From sequence record MN850633.1: a stretch of 64,000 nt of DNA; one strand, written 5' to 3'. Source of the DNA: Escherichia phage allfine. Below, piece by piece: positions 5,996 through 29,102 of the stretch; position 1 is the stretch's first letter, and each line of letters opens with the position of its first letter. Below the pieces are notes generated by a model that ran no database searches, had not been told where the DNA came from, and was given only the letters and a program-made list of their open reading frames with translations. Both the position numbers and the translations under genes were made by a program.

Positions 5996-7612
5996 TCAAC
6001 GTCTAAGCCCCTCATATGGGTTTCCTCTCACTAAGTCTGTGTGAGCACCCATTGATGGTGGCTTGAATAATTTAACTTCGTTAAGACTGTTGAAAGCATC
6101 ACTGGTAGCGTCCACTTGGTCATCTTTAGTTTTACCATCACCACAAAAGCCTTCAAGCTCTTGAAAGTAAGCTTCATTCCAACTACCTCTCAAGACTTTT
6201 ACAAGTCCAGCTTCAGAAGCAGCAGAAAACCCCGCAAATCGGGTAACTTTATCTTTATTTGTTGGTTTGGCTCTTGCTCGATAACCTTTCTCGGCAAGTT
6301 TCCTGATGAGGGATGTTGCGTAGGATTTACCAGCAGCGCCTGGGTCTTGAGGGATAAAAATACCAGTTCGCTTACCGTCACTTTCAGCAGTCAAATTAAT
6401 TTGTGTTTCGACTCCAGAGGGTCTATCTCTAAATCTTACTACATCAATGATATAATAGCAACCGTCTTTTTTAGATTTACCCATCTTAACACCTGCTGTC
6501 CAGTCTGGATTAGGGTTAATCTCAGATGGTAAAGTTGCTGCTAAGTCCCATGCTCTAACATCGAATACATCTTCTGGGAGTGAATCAACAATTTCACACC
6601 ATTGTCTTTGCCAATAGTTTGAACCTTCTGCACGAGCCTTCCAGTTACCGAAACGAAGTCTTGCAACGTTTACAGGGGTGTTATTTTCCAACTTACCGCG
6701 ATACTTTGGTTCTAAAAAGTCAAGAATTGGGTTATCATCAATCGTACCAGAGATGAAGGTGTATGTTTGAGGAATCTCAAGAGGGAACATTTCAAGAATC
6801 TTGTCTCTCTCCCAATCAGAAACCATCACACCATCATTCATAACATACCAACGAATACGACCACACTTTTCAGGGTCTGGATAACCTTCTTCATCTAAGA
6901 ATGGTTCTACCCAATCATAAATAAAGTGGTCTCTGTCTGGGTTCATGGAAATCTTCATGTATGAATCACCTTCAGCACCAGAACGTAGACGGGTTTGTAG
7001 GTATGAAATCTGTGAAGCAGAGAAGTGTGTACCTTCGTCAAAGTAAATAGCTGAGTATTCAATACCCTGATGGCCTTCAGCGTGCTTTTCAAGTTCTAGG
7101 TAGGTAAACTTGATAGTTGCCCCAGAAGGGAATGTGATAGTCATTTTCTGCTCGTGAGGAATCCCACCAAACTTACCAAATAGTTTCTTTGCAGCAGGCC
7201 ATAAACCACCTTGCAACTGTGTTGTATTTCGACGGAAATATACAGCATTATAGTTAGGGTCTTCAATAAATCTTAAAGAGTCCATTAACAATGCGGCAGT
7301 CTTACCAGCACCAGCAGCACCACCATAGAGAACCAAGTCAGCATTAGTATTTAAAAAGACCTCTTGAGAACCCGGCTGAGGGGCTACATAGTTCTTATCA
7401 GTCATCAATTTAAAGATGAGGCGAACTTGGTCTGGTGTGTATCTTAATAAAGTCAGAATTTGAGTTGGAAGGAATTTAGAGGGGTCTTTACCGAATGATT
7501 TGATAATTTCTTTTACTTCATCAGAAAGCCCCAACTCTCCAGCTAGGACTTTCCTAACATCTTCCACTCGCTTCTGCTTAACAGCATTTAAGTCCATTAA
7601 GCGCCTCCGCAA
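5996..7612 (-). CDS. terminase large subunit (538 aa)
   Basis: Walker A P-loop LYGGAAGAGKTAAL near N-terminus, nuclease-type C-terminal half, position at start of head module. Confidence 0.85.
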   Translation of the reverse strand: MRRRLMDLNAVKQKRVEDVRKVLAGELGLSDEVKEIIKSFGKDPSKFLPTQILTLLRYTPDQVRLIFKLMTDKNYVAPQPGSQEVFLNTNADLVLYGGAAGAGKTAALLMDSLRFIEDPNYNAVYFRRNTTQLQGGLWPAAKKLFGKFGGIPHEQKMTITFPSGATIKFTYLELEKHAEGHQGIEYSAIYFDEGTHFSASQISYLQTRLRSGAEGDSYMKISMNPDRDHFIYDWVEPFLDEEGYPDPEKCGRIRWYVMNDGVMVSDWERDKILEMFPLEIPQTYTFISGTIDDNPILDFLEPKYRGKLENNTPVNVARLRFGNWKARAEGSNYWQRQWCEIVDSLPEDVFDVRAWDLAATLPSEINPNPDWTAGVKMGKSKKDGCYYIIDVVRFRDRPSGVETQINLTAESDGKRTGIFIPQDPGAAGKSYATSLIRKLAEKGYRARAKPTNKDKVTRFAGFSAASEAGLVKVLRGSWNEAYFQELEGFCGDGKTKDDQVDATSDAFNSLNEVKLFKPPSMGAHTDLVRGNPYEGLRR

Positions 7613-7618
7613 ATAGAA

Positions 7619-7819
7619 TTATTCAGAGTCTGTAGCAGTCTCTTCTTTTTTAACTTCGAACTTTTCATCAACAGCATCAAGAAGTGCATCCATAGATGCT
7701 TCTTTAATATCAATACCTGTTGCTACAGACAATCTGTCTGCAATTGCCATGATAGTATTCTGCATAAATTCTAGCTTCTTATTAGCTTCATAAAGTTCTT
7801 TATAAACGGTCTCGCTCAT
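7619..7819 (-). CDS. hypothetical small protein (66 aa)
   Basis: ORF with GGAG Shine-Dalgarno about 10 nt upstream of ATG; directly upstream of large terminase. Confidence 0.45.
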   Translation of the reverse strand: MSETVYKELYEANKKLEFMQNTIMAIADRLSVATGIDIKEASMDALLDAVDEKFEVKKEETATDSE

Positions 7820-8041: not shown

Positions 8042-8117
8042 TGGAGAATCCGAAGGGACTCGAACCCTTATAAACCTGTTTTGCAGACAGGCACATAGCC
8101 ATTTCTGTCACGGATTC
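8042..8117 (-). tRNA. tRNA-Cys (GCA)
   Basis: Hand fold: acceptor GAAUCCG/CGGAUUC, anticodon stem CCUGU/ACAGG with loop CUGCAAA, T-loop UUCGAGU, encoded CCA. Confidence 0.7.
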
Positions 8118-8121
8118 AAAT

Positions 8122-8214
8122 TGGAGGAAGATACCAGACTTGAACTGGTACACCGATTTCTCAGCTACTGGCAGTTTAGCAAACTGCTCCCTTACCTTTT
8201 AGGGTTAATCTTCC
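8122..8214 (-). tRNA. tRNA-Ser (GCU), type II with long variable arm
   Basis: Acceptor GGAAGAU/AUCUUCC, anticodon loop UUGCUAA, T-arm ACCAG-UUCAAGU-CUGGU, 93 nt. Confidence 0.6.
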
Positions 8215-8215
8215 A

Positions 8216-8950
8216 TTATTTCTGTAATGCGCTCTTCATTTCTGGTGTTGCAATAGTGTCAATTACACCAGTTTTACAGGCATCATCAAACCAGTCTGGT
8301 AAGATACCTGCTAAGAACCCATTGATATTCGTTTTAAGGTACTCTGCAATAAGGGCAGCTTCTTCTTCAATCATCTGCACAACTTCATCTGCATAAGCTG
8401 TAATCTTTGAGATACCTTCATTAATCTTACTGACAGCTTGGTTAGCTAAATCAGAAACAGTATCAAGACCCTTGTCAATAGCGTCTTGTAAGTCACTTAA
8501 TACATCGTTAACACTCTCTAGTGTACTGTTAATCGTATCAATAGCTTTTTGACCATATTCTGTAGCAACACCCATAATACCACTGAACGGTGTACAACCA
8601 ACTTGTTCTCCTGCTGCACCCATAACATTGGAATATCCCTTTGCTACCTGCATACGTGATGAAAACTCATCAATAGACTTTTGACCGTAGTCTGTTAGGG
8701 TCTTAGTAGTTGCTGTAGTGCTTGTAAGGCTTGTTGTAAAGCTGTTTAGAAGGACTGTTGTAAGTCCAGCAGCAACAAGTTTCTCCTGCATTGTAGGGTC
8801 TGTTACAGAACTAATAGAGCTTACAAGTGATGTAGAAGCAGCTACGGTTCCACCGAGAACTGCTGCACCAGTAATAAGTGGGTTAGAAAACCCTTTACCG
8901 GTTTTTAAGAGATTAAAAATCTCCTTACCTTGTTCTGTCATCTCTTTCAT
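8216..8950 (-). CDS. hypothetical Ser/Thr-rich protein (about 244 aa from internal Met)
   Basis: ORF 8216-9013 in track; upstream 60 nt overlaps a tRNA, so start placed at Met 22 (8950); embedded inside tRNA array. Confidence 0.45.
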   Translation of the reverse strand: MKEMTEQGKEIFNLLKTGKGFSNPLITGAAVLGGTVAASTSLVSSISSVTDPTMQEKLVAAGLTTVLLNSFTTSLTSTTATTKTLTDYGQKSIDEFSSRMQVAKGYSNVMGAAGEQVGCTPFSGIMGVATEYGQKAIDTINSTLESVNDVLSDLQDAIDKGLDTVSDLANQAVSKINEGISKITAYADEVVQMIEEEAALIAEYLKTNINGFLAGILPDWFDDACKTGVIDTIATPEMKSALQK

Positions 8951-8969
8951 TAAGCACCTTTGAAATTGG

Positions 8970-9043
8970 TAGTCCAGTGGGATTTGAACCCTCTTCTCAT
9001 GTTTTTCAGACACGCGCTTTAACCATATAAGCTACTTGGACTA
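8970..9043 (-). tRNA. tRNA-Phe (GAA), imperfect fold
   Basis: T-arm GAGGG-UUCAAAU-CCCAC, acceptor UAGUCCA/UGGACUA, anticodon stem CGUGU/ACAUG loop CUGAAAA; D-arm register ambiguous. Confidence 0.5.
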
Positions 9044-9048
9044 TAAAT

Positions 9049-9124
9049 TGGGGTGACCTACGGGATTTGAACCCGTATAGACCATGTTCACAGCATGGGT
9101 CATTACCATTTATGATAAGGCCAC
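9049..9124 (-). tRNA. tRNA-His (GUG)
   Basis: Acceptor GUGGCCU/AGGUCAC, D-stem UCAU/AUGA, anticodon stem CCAUG/CAUGG loop CUGUGAA, T-arm ACGGG-UUCAAAU-CCCGU, CCA encoded. Confidence 0.8.
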
Positions 9125-9155
9125 ATTTAAGGACTCTCGTAAGAATCCTTAGAAG

Positions 9156-9231
9156 TGGCAGCGGCATAAGGATTTGAACCTTAATAAGACAGCTTCAGAG
9201 ACTGCTGCATTGCCAGTTATGCTATACCGCT
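9156..9231 (-). tRNA. tRNA-Gln (CUG)
   Basis: Acceptor AGCGGUA/UGCCGCU, D-stem GCAU/AUGC, anticodon loop CUCUGAA, T-arm UAAGG-UUCAAAU-CCUUA. Confidence 0.7.
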
Positions 9232-9236
9232 AAATT

Positions 9237-9315
9237 TGGTACTCCATATCGGATTCGAACCGATACATAACACAGATTTTAAGTCTGGCCTCTCTGCCAA
9301 TTGGAGTAATGGAGC
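9237..9315 (-). tRNA. tRNA-Leu (UAA)?, Leu-like D-loop AAUUGGCAGAG but short variable region
   Basis: T-arm AUCGG-UUCGAAU-CCGAU, acceptor GCUCCAU/AUGGAGU, anticodon loop CUUAAAA; atypical for a type II tRNA. Confidence 0.45.
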
Positions 9316-9317
9316 AT

Positions 9318-9392
9318 TGGCGGGGGATGTTGGAATTGAACCAACTTCTTCGATTTCAAAGACCGAGGTTTTAACCTTGTAAACTAATCCCC
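9318..9392 (-). tRNA. tRNA-Gln (UUG)
   Basis: Anticodon stem UCGGU/AUCGA loop CUUUGAA, T-arm GUUGG-UUCAAUU-CCAAC; acceptor pairing imperfect. Confidence 0.55.
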
Positions 9393-9401
9393 TTTAAATC
9401 T

Positions 9402-9959
9402 TTACTTTCTCAGTGGATGAATAAAGAATGCCAACATAACTCTTTCCCTTGAGAATGCTCTTTCTTCTGGGACAACACTTTTTAGTTTCCATCCAATATA
9501 AATTCTCCAGTAAAATTGTTTACCAAAGATTTTAATTGATGGGATAAAAGCGAATAATCCCCAAGCATTCCTGTTCCACATTAGGAGATAACCAGTCTGA
9601 TTATCTTCAGGGTTAGAACTTACGTTGATATTACCTTTCCACTTAGTAACATCTTTTACATCTCTTCCTAACACATGGTAAGAGAAGTTATAAGCTTTGT
9701 TTCTCCAGAGCCATCCAACTCTTTGCATGTAGACACCTAGTTTACCAATCCATCTAATATTAGCCCATCTTTTAACGTGACCTTCATCACCATCAATTGG
9801 GTTGTCATAGGTCTCCATCCATCTGAATCCAAAAGGTAGATGTCCTTTCTTCTCACTGTAGAATGGAACTACAAAAGGTGCTAAGATAACTGCTAAGATT
9901 GCTGCAAATGGCTCTAACAAAGCTAAGAAAATCCATGAAGCATACTTCAAATATCTCAT
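9402..9959 (-). CDS. hypothetical membrane protein (185 aa)
   Basis: ORF with strongly hydrophobic N-terminus (two predicted TM helices), Trp-rich; embedded in tRNA array. Confidence 0.45.
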   Translation of the reverse strand: MRYLKYASWIFLALLEPFAAILAVILAPFVVPFYSEKKGHLPFGFRWMETYDNPIDGDEGHVKRWANIRWIGKLGVYMQRVGWLWRNKAYNFSYHVLGRDVKDVTKWKGNINVSSNPEDNQTGYLLMWNRNAWGLFAFIPSIKIFGKQFYWRIYIGWKLKSVVPEERAFSRERVMLAFFIHPLRK

Positions 9960-9978
9960 CTAAATAGCCTCTTTAAAT

Positions 9979-10054
9979 TGGCGCAGGATAAGGGATTCGA
10001 ACCCCTATTAACAGCTTCGTAGACTGTTGCTCTATCCATTTGAACTAATCCTGC
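9979..10054 (-). tRNA. tRNA-Arg (ACG)
   Basis: Acceptor GCAGGAU/AUCCUGC, D-stem GUUC/GAGC, anticodon stem ACAGU/GCUGU loop CUACGAA, T-arm AGGGG-UUCGAAU-CCCUU, CCA. Confidence 0.8.
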
Positions 10055-10059
10055 AAAAT

Positions 10060-10137
10060 TGGTGTTCCAAGACGGATTCGAACCGTCACTAGTACAAGGT
10101 TTGAGCTTGCATCCTCTGCCAATTGGGATACTGGAAC
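10060..10137 (-). tRNA. tRNA-Leu (CAA)?, Leu-like D-loop, short variable region
   Basis: Acceptor GUUCCAG/UUGGAAC, anticodon stem GCAAG/CUUGU loop CUCAAAC, T-arm GACGG-UUCGAAU-CCGUC. Confidence 0.5.
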
Positions 10138-10138
10138 A

Positions 10139-10213
10139 TGGTACTCACTAAAGGACTTGAACCTTTTTCTTCATCTTGTAAGGGTGATGTTTTACCATAT
10201 AAACTAAGCGAGT
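10139..10213 (-). tRNA. tRNA-Val (UAC)
   Basis: Acceptor ACUCGCU/AGUGAGU, D-stem GUUU/AAAC, anticodon loop CUUACAA, T-arm AAAGG-UUCAAGU-CCUUU. Confidence 0.65.
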
Positions 10214-10306
10214 ATGAAAGAGGTCTGGAGTTGTGCCGCTAACTCAACTCCGTGGAATTTGTTACGGTCTTCAGTTGACTCAAAGCGGTCTTTCACTTGA
10301 CCTCTG
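10214..10306. ncRNA. structured non-tRNA element inside tRNA array (candidate small RNA)
   Basis: Terminal 7-bp pairing AGAGGUC/GACCUCU enclosing hairpin GGAGUUG...CAACUCC; no T-arm consensus; fills gap between tRNA-Val and tRNA-Thr. Confidence 0.3.
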
Positions 10307-10309
10307 AAT

Positions 10310-10386
10310 TGGTGCTGCTCACAGGACTCGAACCTGCATTTCCATCCTTACAAGGGATGTGTAATAGCCAATTATACGAAAGCAGC
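10310..10386 (-). tRNA. tRNA-Thr (UGU)
   Basis: Acceptor GCUGCUU/GAGCAGC, anticodon stem CAUCC/GGAUG loop CUUGUAA, T-arm GCAGG-UUCGAGU-CCUGU. Confidence 0.8.
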
Positions 10387-10392
10387 ATTGTT

Positions 10393-10467
10393 TGGAGCAT
10401 CCAGAGGGAATCGAACCCTCAACCTCAGTTTGGAAGACTGTAATTTTCCCGTTTAAACTATGGATGC
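10393..10467 (-). tRNA. tRNA-Gly (UCC)
   Basis: Acceptor GCAUCCA/UGGAUGC, D-stem GUUU/AAAU, anticodon loop CUUCCAA, T-arm GAGGG-UUCGAUU-CCCUC. Confidence 0.75.
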
Positions 10468-10473
10468 ACTAAT

Positions 10474-10549
10474 TGGTGGAGAAGCAGGGAATTGAACCCT
10501 GTACTTAAGTTTGCAAAACTTATGTTTTAACCATGTAAACTACATCCCC
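10474..10549 (-). tRNA. tRNA-Ala (UGC)
   Basis: Anticodon stem UAAGU/ACUUA loop UUUGCAA; acceptor carries the G3-U70 wobble pair characteristic of tRNA-Ala; T-arm CAGGG-UUCAAUU-CCCUG. Confidence 0.8.
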
Positions 10550-10555
10550 ATTGTT

Positions 10556-10631
10556 TGGTACAGGTGGAGGGAATTGAACCCATCGTCTTACTGATTAAGA
10601 GTCAGCCGCATAACCATTTTGCTACACCTGC
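10556..10631 (-). tRNA. tRNA-Lys (CUU)
   Basis: Acceptor GCAGGUG/CACCUGU, anticodon stem GCUGA/UCAGU loop CUCUUAA; paralogous to the tRNA at 11790-11865. Confidence 0.6.
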
Positions 10632-10638
10632 ATTAATT

Positions 10639-10716
10639 TGGTAGGAGACAAGGGATTCGAACCCTCAAACATCTCGTTCTAAGCGAGATAGGTTTACCAA
10701 TTACCGTCAATCTCCC
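10639..10716 (-). tRNA. tRNA-Leu (UAG)?, atypical
   Basis: Acceptor GGGAGAU/GUCUCCU, anticodon stem UCUCG/CGAGA loop CUUAGAA, T-arm GAGGG-UUCGAAU-CCCUU; D-arm irregular. Confidence 0.5.
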
Positions 10717-10975
10717 ATTAAATCTTTTTAGAGAACTTCTAAGAACCTAAGCAACAAGGTTCCACAACAAGCTGTAATAACCTTAGAAGCCCTCTAAAAA
10801 GACCTAAAAAGGTCTTTGCATAGTCTTGTTTAATCCGGTGACTAGAACCTTTGGAGAGCTTGATATTATCTCTTCTCCGTGACACCTACTAGGTGCTTTA
10901 CTGTGCGTGTACGACAATACACTAGGGATACCAAAGCAACATCCGAATGAAGCTTGGCTTTAAATCTTATTAGGC

Positions 10976-11061
10976 GGTAAGTAAAGGAGTCGAACCCTCA
11001 CCGTATCTCTACAGTGGCAACTGTTTTCAAGACAGTTTGGCTACCATTAGCCGCTACCTAC
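10976..11061 (-). tRNA. tRNA-Ser (UGA), type II
   Basis: Anticodon stem ACUGU/ACAGU loop CUUGAAA, long variable arm, acceptor GUAGGUA/UACUUAC; boundaries approximate. Confidence 0.6.
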
Positions 11062-11075
11062 CCCTAATAAGACTT

Positions 11076-11158
11076 TGGCATGGGACGGAGGAGTTGAACC
11101 ACTTTGAAACGGTTTTGGAGGCCGTTGCTCATGCCTTAGAGTCTTAACATCGTCCCAC
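11076..11158 (-). tRNA. tRNA-like, possible tRNA-Trp (CCA), atypical 5-prime half
   Basis: Acceptor GUGGGAC/GUCCCAU with encoded CCA, anticodon-like arm ACGGC-CUCCAAA-ACCGU, about 7 extra nt in D region. Confidence 0.4.
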
Positions 11159-11301
11159 ACTATAATTCGAAGCTTACCGTATTTTCACAACACTGTAAAG
11201 CCCCTTCTCAGATTATTTACATGTTCTGGAAAACATGAGATACAGACCACCTCCTTACACGGAGACCCGATAAGGTCGTCTAAGTAATCTGCTAACTAAA
11301 T

Positions 11302-11383
11302 TGGTCGAGGCGGCAGGACTCGAACCCGCATACTCCACTTACTCGGTTAACGGCGGTTTAGAAGACCGCTGAGATACGCCCCG
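11302..11383 (-). tRNA. tRNA-like, possible tRNA-Arg (UCU), lacks canonical D-arm
   Basis: Good T-arm GCGGG-UUCGAGU-CCUGC and acceptor CGGGGCG/CGCCUCG plus CCA; anticodon arm GCGGU-CUUCUAA-ACCGC directly after acceptor; 23-nt extra segment. Confidence 0.4.
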
Positions 11384-11631
11384 TAATTATCTTTAAAGAC
11401 TCTCTTAGAAAGCCCTTAAAGATGCCCACCTTATTAATCATACCGTGGGCTAGTACGCCAAATTCTTTGATGAGGGATTGGAAGACCTCACTGGTGTTTA
11501 GCCTATCAAGCTACTGCCAGAAAAACATTGTCGTTTGCATTTATTTTAAATTTGCAAAATAGACGCTACGCAACGAAAACTAAGGTTACTATAAAGTAGT
11601 CACATCTCAATGTCAACAACTTTATTGAAAT

Positions 11632-11707
11632 TGGTACTGGTAGGTGGAATCGAACCACCGATGTTCCCTTATCAGGGGAGTGTTATAACCTTCTTAACTA
11701 TACCAGC
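11632..11707 (-). tRNA. tRNA-Ile (GAU)
   Basis: Acceptor GCUGGUA/UACCAGU, D-stem GUUA/UAAC, anticodon loop CUGAUAA, T-arm GGUGG-UUCGAUU-CCACC. Confidence 0.75.
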
Positions 11708-11708
11708 T

Positions 11709-11785
11709 TGGAGGTTCAGATGGGAATCGAACCCACATTCATAGGGCTTATGAGACCCTTGCATTACCTTATCTGCGACTGAACC
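11709..11785 (-). tRNA. tRNA-Met (CAU), elongator-type acceptor
   Basis: Acceptor GGUUCAG/CUGAACC, anticodon stem AGGGU/GCCCU loop CUCAUAA, T-arm GUGGG-UUCGAUU-CCCAU. Confidence 0.75.
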
Positions 11786-11789
11786 ATAT

Positions 11790-11865
11790 TGGTAGAAGTG
11801 GAGGGATTCGAACCCATCGCCTGTCAGATTAAAAGTCTGCCGCATAACCATTTTGCTACACTTCC
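11790..11865 (-). tRNA. tRNA-Lys (UUU)
   Basis: Acceptor GGAAGUG/CACUUCU, anticodon loop CUUUUAA, D region identical to tRNA-Lys(CUU) paralog. Confidence 0.65.
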
Positions 11866-12122
11866 ATTAAATTACCTTTGTAGATAAGCTACCCAGACTT
11901 GCTTAAGGTCTGTAGCGATGTGCCTTGTTGGGTTTAAATCTAGAATTTACCCTTTCACCCTTTGTGGTCGCATACTCACAGGTAAGCTTAATAACTTATC
12001 TACAAAGATAATTACCAGACCGTTGTTTATCATCTTAAGTGCTACCATTACACCAACTCGACATCTGCCGAGTGAAGGAATCGAACCTTCGCCTTTTCTT
12101 TACCGGAGAAATAGATTGTTTA

Positions 12123-12152
12123 AGTTTTGCTGTAAACGGTCTTCTGTAAATT
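12123..12152. repeat. repeat motif TTGCTGTAA-N2-GGTCTTCTGTAAA, copy 1 of 4 in tRNA array
   Basis: Near-identical copies at about 12205-12232, 12596-12629 and 12763-12790; CCAGACC partner forms long-range inverted repeat with GGTCTTCTG. Confidence 0.5.
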
Positions 12153-12204
12153 TGTTGAGCCAGACCAAGTTTTAAATTTTCAAAATTAAATTGGCTTGAA
12201 ATTT

Positions 12205-12232
12205 CATACATTCTTGCTGTATTTGGTCTTCT
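12205..12232. repeat. repeat motif copy 2 (TTGCTGTATTTGGTCTTCTG)
   Basis: Shares core with copies at 12123, 12596, 12763; upstream partner CCAGACCAAG at about 12163. Confidence 0.45.
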
Positions 12233-12294
12233 GCTCCTTTAAAGAATACTCGTAAGAACTCTTTAAGGGAGGGGCTAAATAGCCCTCTCAAAAT

Positions 12295-12371
12295 TGGCGG
12301 CTACGATGAGACTTGAACTCACATCATCTCCCGTGACAGGGGAGTATTTTCTCCAGTTAAACTACATAGCC
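12295..12371 (-). tRNA. tRNA-Asp (GUC)
   Basis: Acceptor GGCUAUG/CGUAGCC, anticodon stem CUCCC/GGGAG loop CUGUCAC, T-arm GUGAG-UUCAAGU-CUCAU, CCA encoded. Confidence 0.85.
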
Positions 12372-12376
12372 TTTAT

Positions 12377-12464
12377 TGGTGTGCCGTGTAGGAGTCGAAC
12401 CTACCGAGTCTCAATGACAAGGGATTTACAGTCCCCACCGCTACCATCTACGGGATAACGACAC
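12377..12464 (-). tRNA. tRNA-Tyr (GUA), type II
   Basis: Acceptor GUGUCGU/ACGGCAC, anticodon stem GGGGA/UCCCU loop CUGUAAA, long variable arm, T-arm GUAGG-UUCGACU-CCUAC. Confidence 0.75.
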
Positions 12465-12476
12465 ATTTAAATTTTG

Positions 12477-12550
12477 CGGTTAGTCAGGGATTCGAACCCT
12501 GTGCCATTCGCTTAACAGGCGACCGCACATACCTTATGTGCTTCCTAACC
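12477..12550 (-). tRNA. tRNA-Asn (GUU)
   Basis: D-stem GCAC/GUGC, anticodon loop CUGUUAA, T-arm CAGGG-UUCGAAU-CCCUG; CCA not encoded. Confidence 0.75.
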
Positions 12551-12595
12551 TTAATACATTGCCAGACCGTGTTTTTCTTTTATCCGCAAAAAGTA

Positions 12596-12629
12596 GTTTG
12601 TTGCTGAATACGGTCTTCTGTAAATTTGG
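12596..12629. repeat. repeat motif copy 3 (TTGTTGCTGAATACGGTCTTCTGTAAATTTGG) with upstream CCAGACCG partner at about 12571
   Basis: Same core as 12123 and 12763 copies. Confidence 0.5.
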
Positions 12630-12703
12630 AGGCGGGTGCAGGAGTCGAACCTGCCGATACCATGCTAATGAGACATGTGAGACGCCCTTTCTCTATACCC
12701 GCA
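12627..12703 (-). tRNA. tRNA-Met or Ile2 (CAU)
   Basis: Anticodon stem CAUGU/GCAUG loop CUCAUUA, D-stem GAGA/UCUC, T-arm GCAGG-UUCGACU-CCUGC; position 1-72 mismatch in one register. Confidence 0.6.
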
Positions 12704-12762
12704 ATTCTTAATGACCAGACCAAATATCTTCTTTGTCCGATTTCGTGTCAGATGAGTAGATT

Positions 12763-12790
12763 AAGTTTGCTGTAATTGGTCTTCTGTCAA
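12763..12790. repeat. repeat motif copy 4 (TTGCTGTAATTGGTCTTCTGTCAAAA) with upstream CCAGACCAA partner at about 12714
   Basis: Same core as other copies; on minus strand reads TTGACAGAAGACC. Confidence 0.5.
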
Positions 12791-12793
12791 AAC

Positions 12794-12871
12794 TGGCGTT
12801 CCAGAAGGGATTTGAACCCTCAAATATCCACTTTGAAAGAGTGGTGACTTTACCATTTTGTCTACTGGAAC
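12794..12871 (-). tRNA. tRNA-Glu (UUC)
   Basis: Acceptor GUUCCAG/CUGGAAC, anticodon stem CCACU/AGUGG loop CUUUCAA, T-arm GAGGG-UUCAAAU-CCCUU, CCA. Confidence 0.8.
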
Positions 12872-12878
12872 ATTAATT

Positions 12879-12955
12879 TGGTCTCTGTTGGAGGACTTGA
12901 ACCTCCGGCCTTACCGCCCCAAACGGAACGCTCTACCAAGCTGAGCTAAACAGAG
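12879..12955 (-). tRNA. tRNA-Pro (UGG)
   Basis: Acceptor CUCUGUU/AACAGAG with C1-G72 typical of bacterial tRNA-Pro, D-stem GCUC/GAGC, anticodon loop UUUGGGG, T-arm GGAGG-UUCAAGU-CCUCC. Confidence 0.8.
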
Positions 12956-20890: not shown

Positions 20891-21115
20891 ATGATTAAAA
20901 CACCTGTACCAATTTTTGGATTTCCTTCTATAGAAGAGTTTAAAGTTTATCTTGACAAAAACTTCTACAACGAGCAGCCTGTTACTTTGCTGAAGAGTGA
21001 CTTATCAGAGCTTCTTGATATGGTTATCAAGGCAACTCCTGAGAAGGAGCCTGAACAGAAAGCTGAGAAGAAGACTAGTAAGAAATCCGATAAGAAGACT
21101 GAAAAGTCTGAGTAG
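20891..21115 (+). CDS. hypothetical protein with Lys/Glu-rich tail (74 aa)
   Basis: ORF in plus-strand block. Confidence 0.45.
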   Translation: MIKTPVPIFGFPSIEEFKVYLDKNFYNEQPVTLLKSDLSELLDMVIKATPEKEPEQKAEKKTSKKSDKKTEKSE

Positions 21116-21169
21116 TAACTTGAGGGGTTACTTGATAGCCCCTTTGTAGAAACTTAGAAGGTAGCGAAT

Positions 21170-21721
21170 ATGCAAGTTTTTAAAGATGTAAAAGAGGTTG
21201 AAGGTAACTACCTAGTACTTGATTGGAATGATATTCGGGAAGCACTCTCCGAAGAAAATCTTGACTGGTTTGAACAAATTATCTTTGCAGTACGGCATAA
21301 CAGAGAAGTTGAAAATGGTAAAGAGCCATTAGAAGGAATCTTTGTAGAGAAGTCTTATCAGTTCTATGAAGACACTTTACAGAAAGTTAAAATGTACTTC
21401 AGACAGAAGAACCGTAAAGTGGTCACTATGGTGTCTCTTGGTGGACAGAGTATGTCTATTATGGAAGATATCAACCCTAAGAGGCCGAGTAAAGGTGTCT
21501 GTATAAAAATCACAGGCCATGAAGAGTATATCTCAGCAAGTGATTTTAGTGTATTCTGTAATGGTTCTGCTGTATTTAATGGGTTTCATTATGATATCCG
21601 AGTGTACCCAATTAAGGGAGATGATATCATGATGCAGGTATTCGATAACAACAATGGGTTCACTCATTTTTACCAGACAACTAAGTCATCCTTGAAGACA
21701 GTTTTAGAAAGCCTGATTTAA
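21170..21721 (+). CDS. hypothetical protein (183 aa)
   Basis: Last ORF of plus-strand block, AGGTAGCGAATATG RBS. Confidence 0.5.
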   Translation: MQVFKDVKEVEGNYLVLDWNDIREALSEENLDWFEQIIFAVRHNREVENGKEPLEGIFVEKSYQFYEDTLQKVKMYFRQKNRKVVTMVSLGGQSMSIMEDINPKRPSKGVCIKITGHEEYISASDFSVFCNGSAVFNGFHYDIRVYPIKGDDIMMQVFDNNNGFTHFYQTTKSSLKTVLESLI

Positions 21722-22936
21722 AATATCTTAAGAGCCTCCTTAATTGGGGGTTTTTTAATTTTTTATAAAATTTTATCGGTTGTCCCAACCTCTGGGTCAC
21801 CATCATATGTGAATAAAGTATCTATCCTTTTTAACAACCTTCTTAATCTTACTCTCTATATAGTTATATAGTACTATATAGTATCTTAGTATCTATCTAG
21901 TGGTCTTAATAGCCCCTCTGTATAACCCTTCTAACAAGCCCTCTAACAAGCCATCTAAACACTCTTCTAACAAGCCTTCTAAACAACCTATACAATCATC
22001 TTAACCATCTCTCTATATCCTCTTAGAAGCTCCTATACACCTCTTAATCTCTAGGTTAGCTATGTTACCCTCTATAGGTGTTCACTAGGTACTACTAAGC
22101 CTCTATATAGACTGTTTTAACAAACTTAACAGGAATATCTTCACAGACCTTATCTCACAAGGTCTAACACGGTACTAACAAGGTATCTTATAAGCCTGTT
22201 ATTACCTGTATTTTTAAAAGACTGTCTAGGTAATTATTCAGAATCTTAAAATTTTTATAAAATAGGACTATCAAGTCATTTTTTAGGGTCTTTGAAGGAA
22301 CTGAAAAATATCTGATTAGGATGTATATCTGCTTGGTAGCCCTTAACAGCTCCCTTACAAGTACTTTGCAAAATTTTAAAATATCCTTAACAATTTCTTA
22401 ACAACTCTCTCAAGCTCTTAACAAATCTTCAAAGGTCTTAACAGATTCTTAACAGAACTAACAAGGATGTAACAGTTTCTTAACAGTTGATACATAGTCT
22501 TTACAGAGTCTTAACAGATGACTAACAAGAGTTAATTAGTTAATTTTAAAGAGTTATTTTGTTAAGATAATTAACAAGTTCCTAACAAGTGTTTAATCTT
22601 TTTAACAAGCTATTAACATGGTCACTATCTCTTGGTCTATAGTTCCCTTTCCTTCTTAGTGATTCTTTAAACATACCTCTTAAAAGCTCTCTATAGCTCT
22701 TCATAGGCTCTTTTAAGTCTCTTCCTAGTAGTTACACCCCAACTGTACAGACACCTCTTTATAGGGCTTTACAGGAGCTTTTAAGGCTATGTCAAAGACT
22801 CTTACAAGGCTTTTACGTGGTCTTAACAGAGATTTAACAAGGGGCTAACAAGTTGCTAACAAGTGCCTTAAAAGCATAACTATGTAGGGATTGTTAAGAA
22901 ATTGTTAAGAAAATGTTAAGGGGGCTAGCATTTACG

Positions 22937-22990
22937 TAACTTTTAAACTACTTCAAAATAACTTTTAAACTACTTCAAAATAACTTTATA
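22937..22990. repeat. tandem direct repeat, 22-bp unit TAACTTTTAAACTACTTCAAAA x2 plus partial third
   Basis: Perfect tandem duplication read directly in sequence. Confidence 0.85.
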
Positions 22991-23309
22991 GCCCCCTTCT
23001 TAGATATTCACAAGATAGCTAACGAGATAATAAAGCTTACACCCTTATAAGATTCTTTTAAGTCTCTGGGAAGCTTTATAAAGGGCTTTTTAGGGTGAGT
23101 TAATGCAATCCCTTAAGTTAGGTTGATAAGGCTGTTATAGAGCTTTATAGAGCGTTTAAACGGTTGCCCTTCCCTTTCGGGTTATGGGCTTATATTTAAG
23201 TTGATTTGATAAAAGGCTATAGAGTAGACTATAGAGTTATTGCTTTTTAAGGTCTGATAAGATTCTGGAAAGGAAAGGGAAAGGGTTGTATAAGGGATTT
23301 GATAAGACG

Positions 23310-23336
23310 TAAAAAAGCCCCTATGGGAAAGGGGCT
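23310..23336 (-). terminator. rho-independent terminator at end of small-ORF array
   Basis: Minus strand AGCCCCUUUCCCAUAGGGGCU hairpin followed by UUUUUU, just downstream of stop at 23375. Confidence 0.7.
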
Positions 23337-23374
23337 GTAAAGGTATCTGGGGCTATTTAGCCCCGTTGCGGCGT

Positions 23375-23623
23375 TTAGTTAGTGCCTTTTTTGTCGTAGT
23401 ACAGGGAGACAATTTTTTCACCCCAGTAGTGGTATGTATAACCCTCTTTGAGAACTTCCTGTTTTGTTTCTTTCCAGAATTCATCAGAGGGGTTGTAGTC
23501 ACTGATGGTCTGGCTGATAAGGCCTTTCACCATTTCAAAGGTGTTATCAGTACCTACAAGGTCAAATTTAACGTCCAGAGAGTAGAAGCCGAATTCGTTA
23601 ACAGTTGCGCGGATAGTAGCCAT
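23375..23623 (-). CDS. hypothetical protein (82 aa), array gene 15
   Basis: ORF preceded by conserved cassette (GGAG RBS plus stem-loop). Confidence 0.55.
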   Translation of the reverse strand: MATIRATVNEFGFYSLDVKFDLVGTDNTFEMVKGLISQTISDYNPSDEFWKETKQEVLKEGYTYHYWGEKIVSLYYDKKGTN

Positions 23624-23700
23624 TTTAGAATCTCCAGTTTAGGAAGTTGATTAAGGGTTTTATTTAGTGGGGAAGGTCATTCCCTCCCCGTTGATTGACA
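23624..23700 (-). repeat. intergenic cassette type A: RBS CTAAACTGGAGATTCTAAAATG plus hairpin GGGGAGGGAAUGACCUUCCCC
   Basis: Near-identical copies at 24234-24300, 24796-24870, 26020-26090, 26884-26960. Confidence 0.7.
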
Positions 23701-23702
23701 AT

Positions 23703-24233
23703 TTACAGACTTTTGATTGTCTCGTCAATATCTTTTTCAATATCTTTTAAAGTTTTTTCTAAGTTCTTGATATTGAAAGATAAGCCCTCTCCTAGTGTCT
23801 TAGAGTAACCGCTAGGACGTGAGTTATATAGTTCGATTTCTTCCACTTCGAAGAGACTAACCAACTCACCGCTTACACTGTAAGCCATTGAAACAGTATT
23901 TACAGGGGCTTTATAAAACTTGTTTAAGGACTTGATAGAACGTTCATAAGCCATTTTATAACCGTTTAAAAGGTTTTTAACGTGGTTACGAACGTTTTTG
24001 CACTCATCTAAGTAAATCTCTAAGAATAACGGTAATAATTCCGCTACAGCTTGCATAAAGTGAGAGACTACAACAGTAGAAACATTACGGCGATGAATGT
24101 AATAAGCCCCGTTTTCTGACTTAGTGATGGTTGCAAAGTGTACCCCATTGCAGCGAAATTCGTATGTGTCTTTTACAGGTTTTGACATTACAGCATTTGA
24201 ACGAATGAAGTTGATAGCTTTAAACTTGTTCAT
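23703..24233 (-). CDS. hypothetical protein (176 aa), array gene 14
   Basis: ORF preceded by type A cassette. Confidence 0.55.
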   Translation of the reverse strand: MNKFKAINFIRSNAVMSKPVKDTYEFRCNGVHFATITKSENGAYYIHRRNVSTVVVSHFMQAVAELLPLFLEIYLDECKNVRNHVKNLLNGYKMAYERSIKSLNKFYKAPVNTVSMAYSVSGELVSLFEVEEIELYNSRPSGYSKTLGEGLSFNIKNLEKTLKDIEKDIDETIKSL

Positions 24234-24300
24234 TTTGACTCTCCTAGTTTAAGGATTTTATTTAGTGAGGAAGGTCATCCCTCCCGTTGATTAGTAATTT
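24234..24300 (-). repeat. intergenic cassette type A
   Basis: CATTTTGACTCTCCTAGTTTAAGG...GAGGAAGGTCATCCCTCCC copy. Confidence 0.65.
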
Positions 24301-24453
24301 ACTTGTTTTGATAGCTGATTGCAAGCAATTTTTTAAGCTTATCTATAAAGAATCTTTTAAGTGAATCCCTTTTAGATAAACCCCCTCGAACAAAGTTACC
24401 AATGTCAAGGGGTATTGTCAACACTTTTTTAAAAGTTTTTTGTAAGTTATTGA

Positions 24454-24795
24454 TTAACTGATGAATATTTTTTCAGGCTTTACATAGCTGATACGTTGAC
24501 TTTTTAGAAGGTCATCCCAGATTATCGCGGCAATGTGACCATATCCGGCCTCACGTAAGAGCTTCATTGCTTTACTTCTCGTTTCAAAACGGCTTGCGTA
24601 GTACTCACTATTCAGAGTTGTTTTCTTCCCTTCATTGTCTACATGAATAATCTGCATTACGTGAAAGGGGCTTGTGTCCTCGCCTTTGTTCCACTGTTCA
24701 AAGTATTTTAGGCACTGCATAGGCGACATCTTATCACTAACCTGAGTTGACCAAGATGCGCCAGCTTTATCGGTAATTACGGTTACATAAGCCAT
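24454..24795 (-). CDS. hypothetical protein (113 aa), array gene 13
   Basis: ORF preceded by type A cassette. Confidence 0.55.
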   Translation of the reverse strand: MAYVTVITDKAGASWSTQVSDKMSPMQCLKYFEQWNKGEDTSPFHVMQIIHVDNEGKKTTLNSEYYASRFETRSKAMKLLREAGYGHIAAIIWDDLLKSQRISYVKPEKIFIS

Positions 24796-24870
24796 TTTTA
24801 GAATCTCCAGTTTAGGACTTCATTTAGTGGGGAAGGTCATTCCCTCCCCGTTGATTGACAATTTACAGAC
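24796..24870 (-). repeat. intergenic cassette type A
   Basis: Conserved RBS block and hairpin GGGGAAGGTCATTCCCTCCCC. Confidence 0.7.
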
Positions 24871-25815: not shown

Positions 25816-26019
25816 TTATTTGTTATTTTTGACAACTTTTAAGACTGCAAGATACCCTAAGCAATAAGAATCACCGAAGAGAGTCCTACCCATGAAAGAA
25901 TCCTCTTTGATATCCTTTGTAGTGACAGTTTTTTCTACGCCGTGGGAAAGGACTATATCGCCAACTTTGATATCTTTGATGTGTGTAGTTTCAATGTTTA
26001 AGCCGTTAATAATAGCCAT
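25816..26019 (-). CDS. hypothetical protein (67 aa), array gene 10
   Basis: ORF preceded by type A cassette. Confidence 0.5.
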   Translation of the reverse strand: MAIINGLNIETTHIKDIKVGDIVLSHGVEKTVTTKDIKEDSFMGRTLFGDSYCLGYLAVLKVVKNNK

Positions 26020-26090
26020 TTTAGAATCTCCAGTTTAGGACTTTACTTAGTGGGGAAGGTCATTCCCTCCCCGTTGATGTGTAATTTAAT
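26020..26090 (-). repeat. intergenic cassette type A
   Basis: Conserved RBS block and hairpin. Confidence 0.7.
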
Positions 26091-26610: not shown

Positions 26611-26883
26611 TTACACTAAATGCAGCTTTTTACCTTTTACTATGATGTAACTCGATGCGCTATTGCTTTGCACATCCTGATAAATTCTGCGCAAACGGCC
26701 TTCGTAGTATACTTTCCAACTGGTTGGAATCTTTTTCCCGTATCCTGTAGCAGTTTTTTGTAGTCCTGCAAGTTGCCAATCTAAGATATGTTGTTCGGCT
26801 TGTAAATCTTCGAAGTGCATTACACCGTTCACATAGTGACGAATGGTTACGTTTAAGGTGCGACCGTTGTTAGTAGTGTACAT
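26611..26883 (-). CDS. hypothetical protein (90 aa), array gene 8
   Basis: ORF preceded by type A cassette. Confidence 0.55.
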   Translation of the reverse strand: MYTTNNGRTLNVTIRHYVNGVMHFEDLQAEQHILDWQLAGLQKTATGYGKKIPTSWKVYYEGRLRRIYQDVQSNSASSYIIVKGKKLHLV

Positions 26884-26960
26884 TTTGAATCTCCTAGTTT
26901 AAGGACTTTACTTAGTGGGGAGGTTATTACCTCCCGTTGATTAGTAATTTACTTGTTTTA
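26884..26960 (-). repeat. intergenic cassette type A variant
   Basis: CATTTTGAATCTCCTAGTTTAAGG...GGGGAGGTTATTACCTCCC. Confidence 0.65.
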
Positions 26961-27303: not shown

Positions 27304-27593
27304 GGTGTTTCCTCTTTACGTGATACTTTGCCATTTACAGTTATCTCATAGGATTCTAATAAGTCACTTTTAGACTTTACTGGACTTTTAAAAGTATCAT
27401 CATAAATATTTACTTGCAATACAGGTTTTTTATACTCCCTGCAACTATTCCATAAGCAAATCACTACGCGACGGCCTTTTATTTTGCCGTGCAACCATTC
27501 CATAACATCATGATTATTTCTTGATGTCTCGATAAAATCAATTTTGTTGAGTAATTTGCTCAGATTTTCACGCACTTGATTTGATAATTTCAT
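27297..27593 (-). CDS. hypothetical protein (98 aa), array gene 6
   Basis: ORF preceded by type B cassette; overlaps downstream gene start by 7 nt. Confidence 0.55.
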   Translation of the reverse strand: MKLSNQVRENLSKLLNKIDFIETSRNNHDVMEWLHGKIKGRRVVICLWNSCREYKKPVLQVNIYDDTFKSPVKSKSDLLESYEITVNGKVSRKEETPC

Positions 27594-27685
27594 TTTAGAA
27601 TCTCCTAGTTTAAGGGCTTTATTTGATAAATCTCTTTATCTGGGGCTATCTTACCAGCTTGATAACCCCGTGTAAAGAAATCTAT
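27594..27685 (-). repeat. intergenic cassette type B variant
   Basis: Conserved RBS block; hairpin GGGGCTATCTTACCAGCTTGATAACCCC. Confidence 0.6.
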
Positions 27686-28633: not shown

Positions 28634-29014
28634 TCAGTTAATTTTGAAAATTGTCACATAGCCGTCACTGCCGATTATTTGAGACACTCCAGCTTTTTCC
28701 ACTGAATAGCCCATATTTTCAAGATGATAAACAGCATCATCATAACCATATGCGCCACCCTGATAACGTCTCTTATCGCATCTTATCAGGTTTTTACCAC
28801 GTCCTGCAAGTGCATTCAGTACAGCTTTTTCACTTGATAGCGTACCATCTAACATGGTTGCCGTGTAATGGTTGATTTTATTCCCGTTAATATCATACTT
28901 AAAATTGAATGCGTGAATAACAATCAATTTGCCGTTAAATTTTTCATCAAGTGACTTCTCCAGTGCGTTGCGGAAGTTGTCTTTGTTGATGAATTTCGGT
29001 GCACGATAAGCCAT
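28634..29014 (-). CDS. hypothetical protein (126 aa), array gene 3
   Basis: ORF preceded by type B cassette. Confidence 0.55.
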   Translation of the reverse strand: MAYRAPKFINKDNFRNALEKSLDEKFNGKLIVIHAFNFKYDINGNKINHYTATMLDGTLSSEKAVLNALAGRGKNLIRCDKRRYQGGAYGYDDAVYHLENMGYSVEKAGVSQIIGSDGYVTIFKIN

Positions 29015-29102
29015 TTTTGAATCTCCTAGTTTAAGGTTAATGTAGTAAAGCTCTTTATCTGGGGCTTACTTTATCGAACTATAAGCCCCTTGTAAAGTAC
29101 TT
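29015..29102 (-). repeat. intergenic cassette type B
   Basis: Conserved RBS block and hairpin. Confidence 0.7.

Follow-up and report, generated by a model that had tools for sequence, protein, structure and literature searches.

The 64,000-nucleotide stretch of Escherichia phage allfine analysed here (sequence record MN850633.1; referred to as the window) contains a gene-free zone of 1653 bp at positions 21722-23374 that is dense in short repeats. An initial annotation had offered three candidates for this zone, namely a replication origin, a packaging (pac/cos) or genome-terminus region, and a binding array for a phage DNA-binding protein, and had left them unranked. The matches of the zone identify the stretch as a Felixounavirus genome (Felix O1-like myophage), and the zone itself is very probably the terminus or concatemer-junction region of a phage that packages its DNA with an exact short direct terminal repeat (DTR) of the T7 type, in which the repeated heptamers and the flanks would serve as sites. 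The DTR lies inside the zone:

22335-22925, no strand assigned: direct terminal repeat of 591 bp, located by orthology to the mapped ends of relatives and present as a single copy in this assembly.

The terminal repeat located through the mapped ends of relatives

For the Felixounavirus UAB_Phi87, a DTR of 608 bp has been established by time-limited Bal31 digestion and run-off sequencing, and its sequence is printed in Fig. S1 of the report (PMC4837284; Bardina et al. 2016). On the reverse strand, the published repeat aligns over its entire length with 22333-22917; identity is 86% across all 590 extracted nucleotides. PhageTerm has been used to determine the DTR of Ro111lw, which is given as 613 bp (PMC6454146), and that of vB_EcoM_D4 (PMC11737134). 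In both records the two ends are 100% identical, over 613 bp in Ro111lw and 581 bp in D4, and they map to 22925 and 22335. Repeats of 581 bp are stated for Pr103Blw, and the record of Salmonella phage UAB_69, which comes from the same laboratory as UAB_Phi87, has a 618-bp 'DTR' feature at the corresponding position. Among the matches listed, at least six further Felixounavirus records carry the segment at the record end with two copies per record, and the records of several relatives begin or stop within the zone. The Erwinia Kolesnikvirus vEam_S_24 has near-identical record ends of 442-444 bp (99.3%) that carry the same heptamers as the allfine zone, and related Erwinia phages have also been called short-DTR phages by PhageTerm.

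As shown by homology, 22335-22925 is the predicted DTR, collapsed to a single copy in the assembly and expected at both ends of the packaged virion DNA, and its boundaries at 22335 and 22925 are the predicted cut sites of the terminase. Where the reports on the relatives describe their ends, the repeats are exact and non-permuted according to Bal31 digestion with run-off sequencing (PMC4837284) and to PhageTerm (PMC6454146). This supports a zone that carries an exact short DTR and neither a cos site nor a headful pac site. The genome-terminus or packaging candidate of the initial annotation is thus supported by the relatives' ends at 22335-22925, in the form of an exact short repeat. The position of the DTR is already known in close relatives and as such is of low novelty. 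Its assignment would fix the true ends of the allfine genome. In many Felix O1-like records the DTR is unannotated and the starting point arbitrary, either rIIA or a break left by the assembler. Correct ends are of importance when genomes are rebooted or engineered and when therapeutic and biocontrol phages of this group are annotated.

One set of candidate ends was rejected. The record of UAB_Phi87 (JN225449.1) has 542 bp that are identical at its two ends (1-542 and 87062-87603), but these map to the tRNA cluster at 9193-9734, whereas the published DTR maps to 22333-22917. The 542 bp appear to represent an assembly overlap, because 87,603 - 542 + 608 = 87,669, which is the genome size given in PMC4837284. 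The start and end of JN225449.1 thus differ from the physical ends of UAB_Phi87.

Phased and conserved heptamer arrays

The initial annotation had counted more than 20 copies of a heptamer in the zone, and this count holds: YTAACAR occurs 27 times in the 1653 bp (24 on the plus strand, 3 on the minus strand) vs 65 times in the other 62.3 kb of the window, which corresponds to ~16 vs ~1 per kb or a 16-fold enrichment. Twenty of these strict copies lie within the DTR and the remaining seven in the left flank. CTAACAAG is present in 9 copies vs 5 elsewhere in the window and CTTAACA in 14 vs 19. Two further repeats listed in the initial annotation were also recovered, CTATAGAG with 4 copies vs 1 elsewhere and CTTTTAAG with 5 vs 22, the latter being ~8-fold enriched per kb. 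Tandem Repeats Finder detected arrays with a period of 10-12 bp all through the zone. Inside the DTR, the heptamers and the most widely conserved sequence are arranged as follows:

22343-22608, plus strand: main array of 13 (T)CTTAACAR heptamers with spacings of 9, 11, 20, 22 or 31 bp and a few wider ones of 44-49 bp.

22559, minus strand: single inverted heptamer within the main array, a strict copy.

22365-22405, no strand assigned: most widely conserved box, TTTGCAAAATTTTAAAATATCCTTAACAATTTCTTAACAAC, the sole part with blastn matches in Erwinia (Kolesnikvirus) and Pectobacterium phages.

22823-22862, plus strand: second array of four heptamers with an exact spacing of 11 bp.

22891-22920, minus strand: inverted triplet of TTGTTAAG, TTGTTAAG and the variant ATGTTAAG (two strict copies and one variant) with 11-bp spacing, abutting the right DTR end.

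The heptamer repeats are not due to chance. The distances between them cluster at multiples of ~10.3 bp (R = 0.70-0.74), a value equalled by 0 of 2000 random placements; this periodicity places the sites on the same side of the helix. They are also conserved more strongly than their spacers. In an alignment of ten phages, identity within the DTR is 94.7% at heptamer positions vs 81.5% in the spacers, and in comparison with the three most distant genomes it is 90.9% vs 70.6%; when the heptamer mask was shifted circularly, 0 of 590 shifts attained the observed value. The positions of the copies are kept in Felix O1, Mordin, Sf19 and SUSP1, and the same word fills the repeats of vEam_S_24 and the homologous zone of Pectobacterium phage Arno18, with the box TTTGCAAAATTTTAAAATATCCTTAACAATTTCTTAACAAC visible in both sequences. 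The inverted triplet is 95% conserved and nearly invariant across three genera; in Mooglevirus and Suspvirus its last heptamer is changed to ATGTAAAG and the spacers vary. The phasing, mirror orientation and deep conservation of these arrays are new, though modest, observations. In its accessible parts, the literature on Felix O1-like phages gives the DTR just as a length or a sequence, and the internal heptamer organisation is unmentioned there. Helical phasing and selective conservation make the binding array suggested in the initial annotation plausible by indirect support, and no binding protein was identified.

Instead of a phage-specific recognition protein, the ligand of the heptamers could be a conserved nucleoid protein of the host, similar to IHF, HU or Fis, by which the junction DNA is bent or wrapped. 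A bending protein would fit the helical phasing, and the same heptamer is found in phages of Escherichia, Salmonella, Citrobacter, Erwinia and Pectobacterium. In addition, the units in 11-bp register read TAACAAnnnnTTA, which is one mismatch away from the IHF consensus WATCAANNNNTTR, and one-mismatch IHF sites are 3-fold enriched in the zone. However, this enrichment is a by-product of the heptamer enrichment, the mismatch affects the ATC that is conserved in the consensus, and the zone lacks a perfect IHF site. We consider a host protein as the cognate partner improbable.

The combination of phased direct repeats with AT-rich stretches (GC 0.26-0.30, 22400-22624) is also reminiscent of iteron origins, so that the zone could be, or could additionally hold, an iteron-type replication origin at which a phage initiator binds the heptamers and melts either the AT-rich DNA at ~22530-22560 or the 22-bp duplication described below. 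A role as terminus explains the same features equally well. In T7, the end-proximal non-coding regions carry the promoters phiOL and phiOR according to its record. Both promoters are associated with secondary replication origins, and terminus and origin functions can therefore coexist. On the other hand, the zone contains no cluster of DnaA boxes, with a single relaxed match at 21808 that lies outside the arrays. No adjacent gene gave a Pfam match, be it to an initiator, a helicase loader or a DNA-binding domain, and their PHROGs are of unknown function. GC skew, which the initial annotation had named as a check, carries no origin signal because it follows gene orientation across the 64-kb window and is thus uninformative in this regard. 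Since neither a DnaA-box cluster nor an adjacent initiator gene was found, the origin put forward in the initial annotation receives no positive support, and conservation as well as the sharply conserved boundaries are already explained by the terminus assignment. An origin at this place is therefore unlikely.

Boundaries of the repeat

The left boundary, at the junction of GATGTATATCTGCTT and GGTAGCCCTTAACA (tip GGTAGCCC), is invariant in 10 of 10 aligned sequences of Felixounavirus, Mooglevirus and Suspvirus. The right boundary, at the junction of ATGTTAAGGGGGC and TA (in its short form AAGGGGGC and TA), is invariant in the same ten sequences from these three genera. The sequence that precedes the left boundary is a candidate cleavage or recognition element:

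22320-22334, no strand assigned: invariant box GATGTATATCTGCTT just outside the left DTR end, identical in 10 of 10 sequences.

TGTATATCT also adjoins the DTR end of Erwinia phage vEam_S_24. When read inward, the left tip of the allfine repeat is GGTAGCCC-TTAACA and the right tip is GCCCCC-TTAACA, with more heptamers following after both. The two tips read alike because the heptamers next to the right DTR end are inverted.

The gene-free zone and its transcription context

Used as a query, the 1653-bp zone matched 256 phage records, nearly all of them Felixounavirus with the hosts Escherichia, Salmonella, Shigella and Citrobacter, and 192 of the 256 cover at least 80% of the zone at 80-95% identity. 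With a more sensitive search, at least 209 phage records reached a coverage of at least 80%, and short matches extended to Erwinia (Kolesnikvirus) and Pectobacterium phages, both belonging to the Ounavirinae. The non-coding DNA of the zone is conserved between genera at 74-79%, which equals the conservation of the adjoining genes. In annotated relatives the homologous stretch is gene-free; its annotation is limited to automatically assigned 'repeat_region' or 'terminator' features or to tiny hypothetical open reading frames (ORFs). Neither the paper on the Felix O1 genome nor those on Bas63 (PhageMaP, cryo-EM) discuss the zone in their accessible parts, and the same holds for several genome announcements.

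In agreement with the initial annotation, 21722-23374 contains no internal ORF of 60 aa or more, the longest internal ones measuring 31-41 aa. An ORF of 94 aa (23366-23650) lies almost entirely beyond the zone and is antisense to the gene at 23375-23623. The convergence of two transcription units at the zone was likewise corroborated: ORFs on the plus strand stop at 21721, ORFs on the minus strand begin at 23375, and an intrinsic terminator of each unit points into the zone. The records of AYO145A and Mordin annotate terminators at the places homologous to both of them.

21730-21760, plus strand: intrinsic terminator of the rightward unit, a stem-loop followed by a T-run (-12.8 kcal/mol, z = -2.6).

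23316-23336, minus strand: intrinsic terminator of the leftward unit (-24.8 kcal/mol, z = -3.2).

23350-23365, minus strand: second hairpin preceding the leftward-unit terminator.

Flanks of the terminal repeat

Between the terminators and the DTR boundaries, the following elements were found:

21722-22334, no strand assigned: left non-coding flank of 613 bp, C-rich and G-poor on the plus strand, with seven YTAACAR copies on the plus strand.

21927-21982, no strand assigned: 12-bp array of CCTTCTAACAAG in 4.7 copies (Tandem Repeats Finder), which varies in copy number and holds most of the left-flank heptamers.

22926-23374, no strand assigned: right non-coding flank of 449 bp, G-rich on the plus strand.

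21854, 22011, 22070 and 22101, plus strand: four copies of CTCTATA in the left flank.

23136, 23146, 23218 and 23230, minus strand: four copies of CTCTATA in the right flank.

23162-23191, minus strand: conserved hairpin of 30 nt, GGTTGCCCTTCCCTTTCGGGTTATGGGCTT, with a GAAA loop (z = -2.4).

The left flank is 73-76% identical to Mooglevirus and Suspvirus, which is not below the values of the neighbouring genes. At the inner end of the right flank, the perfect 22-bp tandem duplication that the initial annotation had placed at 22937-22980 was found again: the unit TAACTTTTAAACTACTTCAAAA occupies 22937-22958 and 22959-22980, and Tandem Repeats Finder assigns 2.3 copies with 100% matches to 22937-22987. 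Form and copy number of this duplication differ between relatives. CTCTATA occurs nine times in the zone vs four times elsewhere in the window. Its mirrored arrangement is kept in three genera and is absent from the Erwinia and Pectobacterium phages. The GC skew is mirrored as well, with -0.45 to -0.63 in the left flank (21800-22100) and +0.35 to +0.46 in the right (23075-23374). Read-through RNA from either of the converging units would therefore be C-rich and G-poor, like Rho-utilisation (rut) sites, and such flank transcripts may act as a back-up that insulates the junction from transcription.

The long conserved non-coding stretch could also be taken for the template of a functional non-coding RNA, in which the repeats would be RNA elements. 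The hairpin at 23162-23191 would fit such a role, as nine relatives from three genera share it with 99% identity, far above the value of its surroundings. However, a search of 21000-24000 on both strands gave no Rfam match at E-values up to 1, matches to sigma-70-like promoters amount to 10 vs 10.9 expected from shuffles, and terminators face the zone from both sides. Moreover, what is conserved are short phased DNA words in both orientations rather than paired helices. A functional transcript from the zone is thus highly improbable.

Some of the phages, but not others, contain insertions of ~24-30 bp with inverted-repeat ends in the flanks (alignment columns near 22315 and 22985). SP116 has an insertion containing GGTAGAATCTACC just left of the DTR, and UAB_69 and Sf19 have the insertion ATAGGATTCGATAGATTCCTAT in the right flank. 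The same flank insertion is found in one Felixounavirus and one Mooglevirus and may be a small mobile hairpin element.

Terminase and neighbouring proteins

TerL is encoded at 5996-7612 on the minus strand and matches Terminase_6N/6C and phrog_979. The 4-kb segment of UAB_Phi87 that includes the TerL gene is 97.5% identical to the window, as would be expected for TerL proteins of the same clade. Nine proteins near the zone and TerL fell only into PHROG families of unknown function and domains of unknown function (DUFs), and the neighbours of the zone were without a Pfam match.

A possible mechanism for recognition and duplication of the repeat

In phages of this class, the concatemers formed during replication contain a single repeat at each junction, and packaging is accompanied by synthesis of the second copy (PMC10438801). 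In allfine, the ~20 helically phased CTTAACAR heptamers inside the DTR could be the sites at which a protein, or an oligomer seated along one side of the DNA helix, binds. The bound protein would mark the DTR and position the cuts. The inverted triplet would give the two boundaries the same appearance to a single complex, which could then introduce nicks in opposite strands at a distance of 591 bp; duplication of the DTR would follow by strand-displacement synthesis. We put forward this view of the arrays as a docking platform for a terminus-recognition protein, i.e. a functional small terminase in a subfamily (Ounavirinae) where none has been recognised so far, together with the equalised boundaries, the opposite-strand nicks and the duplication by strand displacement, as a tentative proposal. 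With less weight still, the flanks would probably contribute accessory binding sites (CTCTATA), and the inward terminators together with the C-rich, rut-like transcripts would probably keep transcription off the junction.

Several observations weigh against this interpretation. With regard to the ends, the two kinds of end determination disagree by 2 bp at the left boundary and by 8 bp at the right, and the UAB_Phi87 repeat as taken from the PDF comprises 590 nt rather than 608. The ends of allfine itself are assigned by homology only. With regard to the arrays, the seven left-flank heptamers outside the DTR are conserved no better than their surroundings. The sharing of one heptamer by phages of five enterobacterial host genera would also be compatible with a conserved protein of the host. 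The boundary inverted repeat TAGCCC(CC)TTAACA holds in Felixounavirus, Mooglevirus and Suspvirus but is weak in the Erwinia phage vEam_S_24, and the inward-reading repeat was for this reason dropped as a feature of the whole subfamily. Among the nine proteins around the zone and TerL, PHROGs and Pfam recognised neither a small terminase nor a heptamer-binding protein; for Felix O1, the lack of a recognisable small terminase has already been noted in the accessible text of PMC3185647. The classical position of TerS, 6 nt upstream of the TerL gene, is taken by an acidic protein of 66 aa (phrog_4397; 7619-7819, minus strand). AlphaFold2 predicts it as a two-helix hairpin with a mean pLDDT of 84 and with no sign of a DNA-binding fold. 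Furthermore, the analogy to T7 does not fix the function of the allfine arrays because the role of the CCTAAAG-type arrays of T7 is, to our knowledge, itself not settled.

If the docking-platform interpretation were true, it would provide a concrete and testable mechanism by which a myophage makes exact DTRs. The recognition, cutting and duplication of exact terminal repeats are poorly understood beyond T7, and the phased, mirror-oriented arrays constitute defined DNA probes for finding the recognition protein. If the arrays were dispensable, the zone would simply be the known DTR and its repeats would be decorative.

Further observations in the window and in related records

Downstream of the zone, the small leftward genes are interspersed with a family of repeats of ~30-100 bp (24233-24333, 24791-24866, 26009-26088, 26883-26953, 27591-27624 and 29010-29036). 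It was revealed by multiple blastn matches from one intergenic segment of D4. These repeats probably correspond to the intergenic repeats of 57 and 39 bp, the latter starting with TTGACA, that the accessible part of the Felix O1 genome paper describes between early genes. The window also contains a cluster of 25 tRNA genes with a few small ORFs interspersed (8042-12955, minus strand); it separates the terminase region from the rightward gene block. The record PP892526.1 (Escherichia phage vB_EcoM_I14.1) is assigned to Demerecviridae; Tequintavirus in its taxonomy field, yet it is collinear with the allfine window, and I14.1 is described as a Felixounavirus in the corresponding paper. The label in the record is probably an error or has been exchanged with that of phage I14.

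Comparison with known systems

The DTRs of UAB_Phi87, Ro111lw, Pr103Blw, D4 and UAB_69 are orthologous to the allfine repeat, with the same boundaries, the same gene-free zone and the same flanking genes (86% identity end to end for UAB_Phi87). Their lengths range from 581 to 618 bp through small indels, and the ends of allfine are assigned by homology to them.

Iteron origins such as lambda ori and P1 oriR contain helix-phased direct repeats that adjoin AT-rich DNA, and the phased heptamers and AT-rich stretches of the allfine zone would resemble them in this respect. However, iterons are usually 17-22 bp long, few in number and located beside an initiator gene, whereas allfine has ~27 copies of a word of 7-8 bp with neither a recognised adjacent initiator gene nor a DnaA-box cluster. 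The allfine arrays may also resemble the pac hexamers of P1, the cosB R sites of lambda and the pac boxes of SPP1, where clusters of short words flank the cleavage site and bind the recognition subunit. These phages have headful or cohesive ends and known binding proteins, in contrast to the exact DTRs of allfine, and we know of no sequence similarity between their terminase recognition sites and the allfine heptamers.

T7 is the closest mechanistic analogue. Its small terminase gp18 is recognisable, whereas none is recognisable in the myophage allfine, and the two heptamer words are unrelated in sequence. Allfine further differs from T7 by the inverted triplet at one end of its repeat and by flanking genes that are transcribed toward the ends. 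According to the T7 record, CCTAAAG is present three times inside bp 1-160 and ~12 times at 175-340, with more copies before the right repeat. Most T7 copies thus lie beside the 160-bp repeat at a spacing of 13 bp, whereas in allfine 20 copies fill the 591-bp repeat at a helical spacing of ~10.3-11 bp. What the two phages have in common is an exact, non-permuted short DTR, predicted in the case of allfine, that is located in non-coding DNA at the genome ends, and a 7-bp word that is repeated many times in one orientation in and beside it.

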